This document shows, in pieces, positions 3,842-32,950 of a stretch of 42,021 nucleotides of DNA. The stretch's first letter is position 1; each line of letters begins with the position of its first letter. The stretch lies in the IMG/VR virus record IMGVR_UViG_2939147180_000007; one strand, given 5' to 3'. The notes beneath the pieces are model-generated. The model worked only from the letters and a program-made list of their open reading frames with translations. It did not search any database and was not told the origin of the DNA. Both the position numbers and the translations under genes were made by a program. The DNA comes from a virus. Its lineage: Duplodnaviria; Heunggongvirae; Uroviricota; Caudoviricetes.

Positions 3842-4441
3842 TCAGAATTTATAACCGACACCCACGATGAAACCGTCAGTGCGCCAGTCACCACTGCCGG
3901 AACCTTCATAAGCAATATCAATGGCCACGGATTCGGTCGGGTTAAACTGCATGCCAGCCCCCCACGCCAGAGACGTGTTGCTGTGGCGACCGTCATCACT
4001 TCCGGTCAGCACGTCGTGCGTTTTCCCCTTGTTGTCAGTTACGCGGAGATAATCCCCGGAGAAAGTCGACACACGGCTGTAAGCCATACCCGCCATCGCA
4101 TACGCGCTGAACCATTCATTCACGCGCACAGACGGCCCCGCCATCACGCTGAACCAGCGGTTACGAACGGAATCTTCATGCCAGCGGGTATCGCTGTAAC
4201 GGGTCAGCTGGCGATTCTTGTCTCCTGCATAGCTGAATGAGGTCACCATCCCCAGTGTGTCCGTAAACTCATAACGGTATTTCACGTTAATCCCGTTCAG
4301 ATCATCGCTGCCGGGAACGTTCGTCCGGGCATGAAGATACCCCGCGCTCAGCGTGGACTGATGTTCAGACGCCCATGCAGGCGCACCGGATACGGCCAGA
4401 CAGATGGCTGCGGACAAAATTGCTGCACAAACTTTACGCAT
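3842..4441 (-). CDS. lom: Lom outer membrane protein (Ail/Lom family)
   Basis: 199-aa ORF with signal peptide MRKVCAAILSAAICLAVSGAPAWA and beta-barrel-like sequence ending GVGYKF; position between J and stf as in lambda. Confidence 0.93.
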   Translation of the reverse strand: MRKVCAAILSAAICLAVSGAPAWASEHQSTLSAGYLHARTNVPGSDDLNGINVKYRYEFTDTLGMVTSFSYAGDKNRQLTRYSDTRWHEDSVRNRWFSVMAGPSVRVNEWFSAYAMAGMAYSRVSTFSGDYLRVTDNKGKTHDVLTGSDDGRHSNTSLAWGAGMQFNPTESVAIDIAYEGSGSGDWRTDGFIVGVGYKF

Positions 4442-4461
4442 AATTACCTCTCGCTTTTCTG

Positions 4462-4489
4462 CAATAAAAAAGGCGTCATTTCTGACGCC
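4462..4489 (-). terminator. intrinsic terminator downstream of J
   Basis: hairpin GGCGTCA/TGACGCC followed by a U-run on the minus strand, just before the lom RBS. Confidence 0.6.
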
Positions 4490-4507
4490 CGTTCTGGGTT
4501 ATAAAAT

Positions 4508-7500
4508 TCAGCTGATACTGATACCTGCTGTGGATTTTTTCATCACCACAACCAGCAGATCGCTGATACTGGTTGTTGGTGTCCAGTTATTCGCTCCTGA
4601 TGAAGATACGGTGAATGTCAGTGTCAGCGTCCCCTGTCCGGCAGGCATATCTATAACGGAGGAAAATACGCCCTGAGCATCCGTCGTGGACTGATTAAAA
4701 ATCTCCTGACCATTGCGGGTCACTCTTAACCGGCAGGTTGAATACCAGTATGACTGTTGGTTATTACTGTTGAAATTCTCATGCTTACCACCGCGGAATA
4801 ACACTGGCGGTATCATGACCTGCCGGTCAAATTTCTGATCATCACTGATTCTTACCGTGATGGTGCCACTGGCATAACTGTTCGTGCGGGGGAAAGACTT
4901 GCTGACCGTTTTGACAATATCGCCTTCAATCTGATTGGCTGACAGTTTCCCCTTAATCTGACAGTTCTCATTAATCGTGACATTGTTGAGCGTCCCGGCG
5001 TTCGCATTCACACTGCCACTGATATCCGCATTTTTCGCCGTCAGTCGCCCGTCCGGTGTAAGGGAAAATGCAGGAGGATTACCGCCGCTGGTAATGGTGG
5101 GAGCCGTCAGATATTTCAGGAACACGTCGTTCATGAATATCTGATCACCCTGACCAACAAACATCGGCTTTGTGTTGCCATTCGCAGGATTAATCATCGC
5201 AATCCTGTCTGCCGCCAGCAGCACCTGACTCTGCATTCCTGCTGGCGTATTCTCAATACCGGCACCGATACCCGCAATATAAAGGCGTCCGTCCTGCATC
5301 TGCTGCAGCTTCACAGCCCACATGCTGTTCAGGTTATTATTTGTATCAACCTGAACCTTCTGTATCTGCTGAATTGCCGCACTCTGGTCTTCCAGTTTCT
5401 TATTGACGGTCTGTGTGATTTCATTGCTGACATCCGTAATGGATGTCCTGATTTCAGCCAGGTCAGGCGCAAGCTGACCGTTATCAATCTGCGTCCACAG
5501 CTCCTGAGCCAGATGGGTTTTCCCTATCTCGCCTTTGAAAAAATCCAGATAGCCGGATGCGTCATCACTCGGCTGACCAACAGCCTCCACGAATGCCGAT
5601 TTGCCAACGGTGTTCACACTGCGAACGTAAAAATAATAATTATGGCCCGGTTTGATATTGATACTGGCGGCTATCCAGTACAACGCCGTACCAAGATAGC
5701 GTGCTGTGGTTTCAACCTGCCTGATATCCGCAATCCGCTTTTCCGAGAACCAGAACTCAAACTGTACCGTCGGATCATAAACCGCAAGATGCGGCGTGGC
5801 GGTTATCTGAAAATAGCCCGGCGTCAGCTCAATCCGCGACGGCGCTGCCGGTGCGGCAATCCGGAACGATACCGACGCCGGATCGCCCTGCTGCCCCCAC
5901 GCATTTACTGCCCGGACTGTCAGCCTGTAGTTCCCCAGAGCCAGTTGTGTGAAGCGGTAAGTGGTTTCCGTCGTCCGGGCCGTGCTGACCAGCCGCTCAC
6001 TGCCGTCATCCGCTGCCACGGTCAGGCGAAGCAGGAAGCTCACGCCCTTCACCACCTTCGGCGTGTCCCAGCGGGCCAGCACCTGGTATTCCCCGCTGTC
6101 TGCGGTGACTTCTGCGGTCAGATGCTGCACTGCTGGCGGCGTGACACCGTTTACCGTTCCGCTCTGGTCGCCGTCAAAGTGCGCCCCGTTATCCACGATG
6201 GCTTCTTTCTCCGGTACATGCTGCACGGCAGTGATGGCATACGTGCCGTCATCGTTCTCACGGATACTCACACAGCGGAACAGGCGCTGGCGCAACGTCG
6301 GCAGCTTCAGCCCCCATATGCTGTATCCGGCAACGCCGTCAGGAACCCGGTTCACTTTCACCTTAAGTCCGTCGGTGACGGACTGAACCTCCACGCTGGC
6401 CGGATTGCCACTTCCGTCAACCAGGCTTATCAGCGTGGTGCCGGAGGATGGCAGCGTGATTTCACGGTCGAGCGTCAGCGTCCGGGTCCGGCTGTTCACC
6501 GCCAGCACGCGCCCACCGGTGCTGATACCGGCATAGTCATCATCGCAGATTTCAATAACATCACCTGGTACATGGCGAAGCCCTTCTGCGCCCACGCTGA
6601 AGTCCACGGTCTGCGTTTCCAGCAGTTCTGTTTTAATCAGCCACAGCCCGGCGCGGTGCGCCTGCCCCCGGCTGGTACAGCCAAAGGCATCCATTTTCGT
6701 GACGTTACGACCGTAACGGGCAATGGCCTGCGTGTCCTCCACAAGCTCTGTCGCCGTCTCCCAGCCGTTATCCGGGTCAATCCAGTTCACCTCAACGGCA
6801 TTATGGCGGTCCTTCAGGGCGCTGAAGCTGTAGCGGAACGGCGCGCCATCATCCGGCATCACCACATTACTGCGGTTATAGGTCCACACCTTATCTGATG
6901 GTCGGTCCTGCACGAACGTCAGCGTCTGCCCGTTCCATACCGGCATACAGCGCATCGCCGAGCAGAAATCACTGAGCACATCCCAGGCCTTGCGCTGTGT
7001 GGTCAGGTACGCATTACAGGTGATGCGCGGCTCCGTGCCGCCAAAGCCGTCCGGCACCGACTGGTCGCAATTCTGGCCGATGACATACAGCGCCCATTTA
7101 TCCACATCTGCCGCACCAAGACGTTTCCCCATGCCGTAGCGCGGGTGGGTCAGCATATCCCACAGACACCAGGCCATGTTGTTGCTGTATGCCGGTTTAA
7201 ACGTTCCGTCCCAGATACCGCTGTATTGCCGCGTCTGCGGGTTATAATTCGACGGCACCTGCAGAATACGCCCGCGCAGATGATAATTACGGCTCACCTG
7301 CTGGCTGCCGAACTGCTCCGAATCCACCTGTACGCCGACCAGTGCCGTGTTCGGGTAGCACTGTTTCACATCGATGATTTCGGTGTATGACGACCAGAGC
7401 GTTTTGTTCTGCAGCTGGTCTGTGGTGCTGTCCGGTGTCATCCTGCGCATCCGGATATTGAACGGGCGCGGAGGCAGGTTATCCACCACCACCGAGGCCA

Positions 7501-31333: not shown

Positions 31334-31358
31334 AAAAACAAAACCCGCCGAAGCGGGT
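31334..31358 (-). terminator. intrinsic terminator of hok mRNA
   Basis: hairpin ACCCGCTTCGGCGGGT followed by a U-run on the minus strand downstream of hok stop. Confidence 0.6.
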
Positions 31359-31427
31359 TACGTGCGGGTGCGTTGAGGATGCCTGACACATCAGAGGTGG
31401 CGAGGGATTTCTCCCCCGCCAGGTCTC

Positions 31428-31583
31428 TTACTCCTCAGGTTCGTAAGCTGTGAAGACAGCGACCTCCGTCTGGCCGGTTCGGATTCGTACCTCGCAGAGG
31501 TCTTTCCTCGTTACCAGTGCCGTCACAATGACGGTTAAACAGATGACGATCAGGGCGATTAACATCGCCTTTTGCTGCTTCAT
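31428..31583 (-). CDS. hok: Hok/Gef family type I toxin
   Basis: 51 aa MKQQKAMLIALIVICLTVIVTALVTRKDLCEVRIRTGQTEVAVFTAYEPEE, near-identical to HokD/RelF from memory; in-frame upstream extension to 31640 occupies the mok position. Confidence 0.88.
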   Translation of the reverse strand: MKQQKAMLIALIVICLTVIVTALVTRKDLCEVRIRTGQTEVAVFTAYEPEE

Positions 31584-31842
31584 AGCCTGCTTCTCCTTGC
31601 CTTTCGGCACGTAAGAGGCTAACCTAGATTTGCCGTTCATAGATTGAGCCTCAGATTAATGTTAAGCGTCTTGCAGGACGCGTAATGTTAACTGGGGCTT
31701 TTCTCTATCTGCCTTTTGGTGTTCATGCCTGAGACAGATAGCCTCAAGCACCCGCAGTCATTCTACTTAACTAAGATTTCCCCGCAAACCGTTTTTGTCC
31801 GGCACAGTAAATATCCAACTAAACCAATGGCGTTCGCTGTAT

Positions 31843-32022
31843 TTACCGCCAGTATTCAATGCACATGACCGCCATGAACACCCCTAAAAAAAGGGCATTT
31901 ATATATCCAAATATTAATATCAAAACATCAACTTTTTCCATATACCTTGCTGTGAAGATGATGGGCATACATGATACGAACAACCAGAACGCAACAAACA
32001 AAAACTGCAATGCGTTTTTCAT
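31843..32022 (-). CDS. small hydrophobic two-TM membrane protein in AT-rich islet
   Basis: 59 aa MKNALQFLFVAFWLFVSCMPIIFTARYMEKVDVLILIFGYINALFLGVFMAVMCIEYWR; strong SD AGGAGG 4-5 nt upstream; track ORF 31843..32061. Confidence 0.5.
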   Translation of the reverse strand: MKNALQFLFVAFWLFVSCMPIIFTARYMEKVDVLILIFGYINALFLGVFMAVMCIEYWR

Positions 32023-32193
32023 TATTCCTCCTACAATCAATGTGCAATTACATTTAAACACACCTCAATTTGGCCGAACATATAAATATCTAAACCAGAA
32101 AAAATCACTTACATAGCGTTACAAACTCTTTAGTCTAAATATTCATCGTAAAACATTCCCCATACTTATCAGCCCGTTCTGCGCCAGGTAGCT

Positions 32194-32509
32194 CATTGCC
32201 TTATCTGGGAATCTGTAATCAGGTTTCCGGATGCTGGTGGATTTTCGCGTTTTAGTTGTTCATAAAAGTGCACAGCTTTAACCAGTTCTTCTGATGTAAC
32301 CGGGACTGGCGGGGCAGTGAATAAGGCCTGAATTTCATAGTTCGGCCTGTCGTTACAATCCTCTTTTTTCGGTACATATTTCCAGTCACCAGACCACTAC
32401 TTCTCCTGAAAGTCCGTAACGCCTTTTTTTTCACGTAGCGATATCGCCATGCCACTGTTTTTGCTTGCCCCGCCGTTTCATGCCCTTCCTGATAATTAAC
32501 CTCGCTCAT
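32194..32509 (-). pseudogene. frameshift-interrupted ORF at poly-A runs (possible pseudogene)
   Basis: ATG at 32509 overlaps upstream stop (ATGA); downstream protein-like frame (...PNYEIQALFTAPPVPVTSEELVKAVHFYEQLKRENPP...) is shifted by -1 after an A6 run and has no start codon. Confidence 0.3.
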
Positions 32510-32857: not shown

Positions 32858-32950
32858 TTAACTACCGCCCTTTCGGGCGGCCTCCTGATGTTCTGAGGGT
32901 GCAGAAATCCCTCCGGTTAAGGATTAAATTTTTAACAGAGCTAAATTTAA

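Follow-up and report, generated by a model that had tools for sequence, protein, structure and literature searches.

Does the AT-rich DNA that adjoins hok in a lambdoid prophage carry a gene of its own and, if so, what sort of membrane protein would it encode? The question is posed by a 42,021-nt stretch of Caudoviricetes DNA (IMG/VR record IMGVR_UViG_2939147180_000007; hereafter the window), in which an initial annotation had picked out a low-GC segment next to hok, a minus-strand open reading frame (ORF) of 59 codons (31843..32022) behind an AGGAGG Shine-Dalgarno (SD) sequence, and two hydrophobic helices of no recognised family. All of these elements held up in our analysis. Based on the sequence comparisons described below, we conclude that the ORF is very probably a real, at least recently selected gene. 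As judged from the same comparisons, it belongs to a small, undescribed family restricted to Escherichia/Shigella that has two clades: clade A, including the copy in the window, in Qin-type lambdoid prophages and clade B in a decayed prophage remnant. As a whole, we lean towards reading it as a genuine 59-residue hairpin membrane-protein gene that is carried as an optional cassette and whose product would be a stand-alone accessory factor, tolerated by or benefiting the host.

The GC content drops to 35.2% in 31800..32143, compared to 50.5% across the whole window, and Pfam and Rfam both place hok/sok directly beside this segment. The low-GC segment had been drawn more widely, as 31640-32250. 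An islet is real at about 31800..32143, while 31640..31753 is hok leader/sok, ~31760..31790 is the putative hok promoter, and 32143..32250 belongs to a pseudogene upstream, of which it forms the 3' end. Length by itself says little about the ORF, as an ATG-initiated frame of at least 59 codons arises in 37.5% of dinucleotide shuffles of 31640..32250; a frame of at least 59 codons with a preceding AGGAGG arises in only 0.12% of them. Site 32029 varies, and the SD reads AGGGGG in some alleles. Two alternative frames were rejected. The GTG-initiated 72-aa version found in some GenBank records was dropped in favor of the ATG with the SD, and clade B has its ATG at the same position and an equal length. 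An antisense 85-aa ORF (31859..32116, plus strand), annotated in phage PhiR42_1, was ruled out, its frame having stops in clade B.

An exhaustive HMMER search against 1.84 billion representatives returned a single true relative (P0037/P0043, the clade B protein), which is also 59 aa long and aligns from residues 1-59 to 1-59 at 41% identity (E 3.7e-9). Word-based searches returned near-identical copies and broken versions only. Neither a two-clade profile search nor a scan covering a single genome of each species revealed a third clade; the additional profile matches were frameshifted or truncated copies, and a match in Asticcacaulis spans 27 residues and is probably spurious.

Over 180 nt the two clades share 60% nucleotide identity with zero indels, while the alignments of the two flanks of the ORF, at 55-60% identity, contain 16 gap openings (197 columns) and 7 gap openings (77 columns). 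The 72 substitutions are distributed 25/16/31 over the three codon positions, and the proportions of nonsynonymous (pN) and synonymous (pS) differences are 0.33 and 0.72, compared to pN/pS ratios of 0.64 and 1.28 in two shifted control frames. Of the six frames, none but the 59-aa one is open in both clades, and frame, start and stop together survive in just 0.24% of random derivatives carrying 72 substitutions. Variation within the clades points the same way: among 10 clade A haplotypes the 180-nt ORF has 4 variable sites and the intergenic DNA next to it has 16 in 209 nt (Fisher P = 0.02), and in clade B there is 1 variable ORF site where 4.7 are expected (P = 0.045, binomial; 0.085, Fisher).

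These data bear on the simplest alternative, that there is no functional gene here at all. The frame would then either have arisen by chance in T-rich DNA or be a newborn or decaying ORF conserved by shared DNA ancestry. T-rich strands do yield hydrophobic ORFs by composition (T occupies the second position in 54% of the ORF's codons), and the high frequency of equally long frames in the shuffles is in keeping with this idea. Other points that weigh against a selected gene are that the Prokaryotic Genome Annotation Pipeline (PGAP) never calls it, that the test of its conservation in clade B is marginal, one pseudogene stretch of the same remnant being equally invariant, and that the family is limited to one genus and to two clades, which precludes any assessment of covariation or deep conservation. 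In addition, all five within-clade polymorphisms are nonsynonymous and none is synonymous (V16A, V31I, I37M, Y40H and, in clade B, M6V; all conservative), a pattern that fits weak recent constraint, with numbers too small to decide. Short timescales inflate dN/dS. Against a chance or decaying ORF stand the indel-free frame at 60% nucleotide identity amid flanks that gained indels, the low rate at which a frame would be retained in both clades by chance, the paucity of polymorphism in the ORF relative to its flanks and the invariance of specific residues. We therefore regard the absence of a functional gene as rather improbable.

The gene is widespread. A Qin-type lambdoid prophage of clinical E. 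coli, for example that of strain M217, matches this region of the window at 100% identity, and the islet is present in 1569 of 5426 complete E. coli genomes (~29%) at 96.6 to 100% identity, nearly always in single copy. Clade A is likewise found in three deposited phage genomes (ON470619.1, ON470612.1 and PV340562.1). Two of the phage records label the ORF “hornerin” and the third annotates the antisense strand; these are automatic mis-annotations. Some GenBank records list the ORF as a “hypothetical protein” of 59 or 72 aa, and PGAP annotation of it is absent from all RefSeq records that we inspected. Among the papers searched for the peptide strings, none contains them. A survey of Hok proteins reports that hok is enriched in prophages (10.1101/2025.08.07.668861), and its passages on upstream genes, neighbors, synteny and hokD do not mention the adjoining ORF. 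Similarly, a ribosome profiling preprint on strain CFT073 describes 15 intergenic small membrane ORFs (10.64898/2026.09.28.754932); the coordinates in its main text, which are given for SMP3, SMP7 and YohO and not for SMP10, SMP11, SMP12 or SMP14, do not correspond to the clade B locus, although the clade B ORF may be among those described.

Clade B is found in a different setting. Its ORF (NC_004431.1 1,651,669..1,651,848 in CFT073) lies between ttcA and uspF, the site at which the Rac prophage is integrated in K-12, and is present in 1045 of the 5426 complete E. coli genomes (~19%), including CFT073, SE15, ST131 and the type strain ATCC 11775, without ever being annotated. The prophage remnant that contains it is 2.3 kb long (3933-6257 of the ttcA-uspF segment compared), is 98.4 to 100% identical across the 1045 genomes and is the same in CFT073, SE15 and ST131. 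Besides the ORF, the remnant holds an integrase fragment, a DUF1627 fragment, a hok pseudogene and a frameshifted metal-transporter permease, which leaves the clade B ORF as its sole intact reading frame. K-12 has neither clade; it lacks the remnant and has just ~180 bp between ttcC and uspF.

The protein itself is very hydrophobic (grand average of hydropathy 1.31), with Kyte-Doolittle maxima at residues ~5-25 and ~33-55. Its only charged residues are K2, R26/E29/K30/D32 and E56/R59, and the segment R26-Y-M-E-K-V-D32 separates the two hydrophobic stretches. An AlphaFold2 model built on a shallow 8-sequence alignment has helices at 2-24 and 31-58, with a mean predicted local distance difference test (pLDDT) score of 71. 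Both termini are probably cytoplasmic and the short loop periplasmic, given that the positive charges of K2 (or R2-K3) and R59 are conserved and that the loop of clade B is purely acidic. A Foldseek comparison of the AlphaFold model with viral structures retrieved generic hairpins only, all at E > 0.5. For the clade A protein there is no family match in Pfam (to E <= 10), NCBIfam, PHROGs or PADLOC, and the clade B protein has sub-threshold matches only, such as phrog_6298 (function unknown) at E 0.12. The residues that are invariant across both clades (W13, S17, C18, P20, I21, I22, T24, L36, F38, G39, N42, A43, L44, E56, W58 and R59) indicate that what has been kept is specific and not merely hydrophobic.

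To place the gene in its locus, we compared prophages with and without it (Table 1). In the early-right operon of the window, the ORF is preceded by cro, ydaT, a replication gene, DUF977, a hypothetical gene, DUF7167, a second hypothetical gene and a phrog_660-family pseudogene, and it is followed by hok/sok, a hypothetical gene, DUF968, rusA, the Q antiterminator gene and the lysis cassette. The prophage of strain 455 shares both the upstream gene and the hok module with the window but has ~73 nt in place of ~343 nt, which delimits the present/absent segment to roughly the bounds given in Table 1; a prophage of the O157:H7 strain TR01 likewise lacks the cassette and has ~73 nt in the slot. 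We considered whether the spacer of these “empty” prophages might be a deletion remnant of the 3' end of the ORF and rejected this idea, as the alignment scores are no better than those of shuffles. Absence from otherwise identical prophages, which the initial annotation had taken as grounds for rejecting the gene, is thus found in strain 455, and since such absence is expected of optional cargo it does not disprove the gene. Based on these comparisons, the ORF with its 5' region is a separable cargo cassette of ~270 bp between the last nin-region gene and hok/sok, on the same strand as the early-right operon.

Table 1. Positions of the 59-aa ORF, its cassette and the adjoining features in the window.
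Feature	Position	Strand	Basis or remark
59-aa ORF, clade A	31843..32022	-	Sequence; encodes MKNALQFLFVAFWLFVSCMPIIFTARYMEKVDVLILIFGYINALFLGVFMAVMCIEYWR; predicted two-helix inner-membrane hairpin
Shine-Dalgarno AGGAGG	32027..32032	-	Sequence; 4 nt 5' of ATG
Present/absent cassette, ~270 bp	~31847..32116	-	94 nt 5' region + ORF; missing in otherwise syntenic prophages
AT-rich islet	31800..32143	.	Base composition; between upstream-gene stop and hok promoter region
Putative hok promoter TTTGCG/TTGCGG ... TAGAAT	31760..31788	-	Read by eye
hok mRNA leader / sok	31578..31753	-	Rfam RF01794, 112 bits, E 2.9e-26
mok reading frame (from 31640) with hokD coding sequence (31428..31583)	31428..31640	-	Hok/Gef Pfam match, 81.6 bits
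Intrinsic terminator after hok	31342..31359	-	First terminator downstream of the 59-aa ORF
phrog_660-family gene, frameshifted pseudogene	32143..32509	-	TGA 32143..32145 = left edge of islet

Several features of this locus merit separate mention. A sub-threshold match to the Rfam family isrK (31338..31419, minus strand; 27 bits versus a gathering score of 50) covers the 3' end of hok and the terminator hairpin, and is probably just the hok terminator. The phrog_660-family gene, whose function is unknown, has a frameshift and an internal stop in the window and is intact in other strains, where it encodes 171 to 204 aa. Its 3' end is strongly divergent between alleles in which the islet and hok are nearly identical, giving a sharp mosaic boundary at ~32145. 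The slot occupied by the cassette has other tenants: in the TR01 prophage (1723-1806 of the TR01 segment compared) it holds an ORF for a 27-aa single-helix peptide, MTWPEAFTTVGIAMAVALVVYSICRWG, that has an AGGAGG SD and an ATG overlapping the TGA of the preceding DUF551 gene (ATGA). This ORF is frameshifted in strain 455 and is not annotated by PGAP. The window keeps only decayed flanks of that slot (32134..32145 and 31800..31842), and the 59-aa cassette lies inside them. Further upstream, a 67-nt intergenic element (32863..32929) immediately precedes the DUF7167 gene and forms a GC-rich hairpin on the minus strand (GCCGCCC-GAAA-GGGCGGT); it is 97% identical in an O157:H7 prophage with different neighboring genes and has no Rfam match.

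The association of the ORF with hok is old. In both clades the ORF is directly upstream of hok, which is part of an intact hok/sok locus in the window and has become a truncated pseudogene in the remnant of clade B, and this order must therefore predate the split of the clades. The clade B hok fragment begins 55 nt past the ORF stop and shows 80% identity in a 66-nt stretch (E 6.5e-12). Promoter, leader and the first 23 codons are missing from it, and its translation (VTKKDLHQVRI*GGQMEVDIYT) has an internal stop. Such an association might mean that the 59-aa protein is a partner of Hok that gates, enhances or neutralizes it, or that transcription of the ORF into the hok locus tunes hok/sok. 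The persistence of the gene order through divergence to 41% identity is in line with a partnership. So is the spacer of 55 to 85 nt that leads from the ORF stop to the hok promoter, as it contains no terminator. However, hok modules that share this promoter commonly lack the ORF: in prophages of O157:H7, avian pathogenic E. coli (APEC) and strain 455 the homology to the window starts at 31800 or 31772, and in plasmid modules it starts near the mRNA start. Conversely, the ORF persists where hok is truncated, as in the ttcA-uspF remnant, or split from its leader, as in ATCC 8739. Given that each thus occurs without the other, the ORF being found without a working hok, the cassette is separate from hok, and we consider a dedicated Hok partner quite improbable.

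Comparison with the Qin prophage of K-12 further clarifies the history of the locus. The initial annotation had placed the ORF at the position where Qin has relBE. It is correct that in K-12 relE immediately precedes the hokD coding sequence; the homology that K-12 Qin shares with the window is confined to 31334..31597, that is, to the hokD coding sequence, its SD and the terminator, and the part running from relBE to hokD is kept in K-12 (Qin stretch 4025-4289). However, ATCC 8739 and phage PhiR42_1 (3794-7978) carry, in order, the ORF, the hok leader (to 31582), an insertion sequence, flxA, ydfV, relBE and the hokD coding sequence, which is homologous from 31597 down. Because the ORF and relBE coexist in these two genomes, they are not simply alternative alleles. 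From this arrangement it looks as if insertion of the relBE block parted the leader of hok from its coding sequence in an originally intact hok/sok locus like that of the window, which would explain why the hokD of K-12 is without leader, mok or sok.

We also searched for signals that might control the gene. A consensus scan found no sigma-70 promoter upstream of the ORF. With position weight matrices, the upstream region of clade A has weak promoter candidates only (best score ~6 bits), and that of clade B has a perfect TTGACA 84 nt before the ORF together with a poor -10 element. No terminator was detected on either strand over the ORF region, nor between the ORF and the terminator after hok. 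As the gene has no recognizable promoter or terminator of its own, it is probably transcribed by read-through from the early-right operon, the transcript running on into hok. It may also have a weak promoter of its own in the AT-rich DNA of the islet, and clade B would need one.

The same scans are relevant to the possibility that the product is a membrane-damaging toxin, either of a second, unrecognized type I-like system beside hok or as a GhoT-like two-helix lytic peptide. A small, very hydrophobic protein with two predicted helices, encoded in AT-rich accessory DNA next to a membrane toxin gene in both clades, is a natural candidate for this role. An antisense RNA, which the initial annotation had suggested looking for, was not found: there is no Rfam match over 31843..32143, no terminator over the ORF and no antisense promoter conserved between the clades (consensus scans being weak tests), and the best antisense promoter-like sites are at non-homologous positions in clades A and B. 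The SD is strong, and no significant RNA structure sequestering it was seen, the predicted folding of the 5' regions of the two clades being no better than that of shuffled sequences (z -1.5 and -0.5). Moreover, the protein has no Pfam match to GhoT/OrtT or Hok, the gene has no antitoxin-like neighbor, and the ORF persists alone and intact in >1000 complete genomes in which its neighbors are pseudogenes. Taken together, a toxin seems unlikely, although it is the alternative that we take most seriously.

A role in lysis timing, as a holin, pinholin or antiholin-like protein, is a further alternative and had been raised in the initial annotation as a holin-like function. The size of the protein, its two transmembrane helices and its location on a phage are compatible with it. 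However, the ORF is in the nin region, ~5 kb upstream of a lysis cassette beyond Q in which genes for a class II holin, a lysozyme and a YdfR-family protein are already present. The C-terminus reads I-E-Y-W-R, with a net charge of about zero, and is not the highly charged tail of class II holins. There is no Pfam or PHROG holin match, and the ORF is kept in a remnant without a phage. This suggestion is much weakened by our results and we consider it highly improbable.

Based on these comparisons, we return to the reading of the gene as a stand-alone accessory factor. The functional part of this proposal is what we infer. The protein would act through specific helix-helix contacts, either by self-association or by binding another membrane protein, and not through unspecific membrane damage; we suggest this because S17-C18-x-P20, T24, G39, N42, G47 and the C-terminal E-x-W-R are conserved. 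Its activity might be, for example, phage exclusion or the modulation of a membrane protein. That it would be tolerated on its own is suggested by the clade B remnant of >1000 complete genomes, in which no other frame has stayed intact, and a function confined to the lytic cycle or an unguarded toxin is less likely than such a factor. A bolder proposal, which we regard as a long shot, is that the 59-aa protein and Hok made up an ancestral two-gene membrane module in which the 59-aa protein gates or counteracts Hok or is itself a new two-helix effector, with clade B being domesticated after the prophage and hok had decayed in the CFT073/ST131-type lineage. If this were true, the gene would be a widespread, unannotated, host-retained small membrane protein in phage defense or membrane stress.

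An uncharacterized small membrane protein of a prophage is an ordinary class of object, and by itself this gene does not open a long-standing question. What goes beyond the ordinary is that it is systematically unannotated, that its association with hok is old and that a sister copy has outlived its prophage. A conserved gene present in more than a quarter (clade A) and nearly a fifth (clade B) of complete E. coli genomes has been missed by the RefSeq pipeline and, having no family model, is invisible to most surveys of pangenomes, defense systems and small proteins. This compact piece of cargo has accompanied hok/sok over a time in which its two copies drifted apart to 41% identity, and in one lineage it has outlasted both phage and hok. 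The gene is thus a well-defined candidate for studying what small prophage membrane proteins do, be it exclusion, toxin modulation or regulation of the host membrane.

How does the 59-aa protein compare to known systems? The closest by location are Hok/Gef (PF01848) and its antisense RNA Sok. Like Hok, the protein is small, hydrophobic and predicted to be in the inner membrane, and its gene shares a locus and a direction with hok, to which it is physically linked in clade A and clade B alike. However, Hok/Gef proteins have one helix and a periplasmic tail while the 59-aa protein has two predicted helices and no Pfam match, and its ORF is without a mok-like leader ORF, a fold-back leader or an antisense RNA signal. 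In size (57 to 59 aa) and in its predicted two-helix hairpin, the protein resembles the type V toxins GhoT and OrtT, which are two-helix toxins of ~57 aa. Unlike these, it has no Pfam match at E <= 10, and its neighbors are the phrog_660 pseudogene and hok, with no gene for a GhoS-like RNase. Class II holins and pinholins such as S21 share the two transmembrane helices and the phage origin, but the ORF is outside the lysis cassette, has no dual start and lacks a holin-family match. For clade B there is a weak full-length match to the small subunit of a Na+/substrate symporter (TIGR03647, 14.5 bits with a cut-off of 26.05; DUF4212, 13.9 bits with a cut-off of 30), while clade A has none. A gene for an SSS-family transporter would be expected beside such a subunit, and no transporter gene adjoins the ORF of either clade; we treat these matches as compositional.

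Further parallels come from the small regulatory membrane proteins of E. coli (MgrB, AcrZ, MgtS and SafA) and from small subunits with two transmembrane helices, with which the 59-aa protein shares polar and small residues within its helices. The conservation of such residues suggests a specific packing of the helices. Finally, the cassette has much in common with the moron-type genes of lambdoid phages, of which the superinfection-exclusion membrane protein gp15 of HK97 and lom and bor of lambda are examples. It has, like them, a GC content below that of its surroundings, the same presence or absence at an exact intergenic point and a membrane product, and it differs in that no promoter or terminator of its own is recognized and in that its product has no similarity to described exclusion proteins in PHROG or PADLOC. 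By analogy, the 59-aa protein would be most like the moron-type accessory membrane proteins of lambdoid phages.

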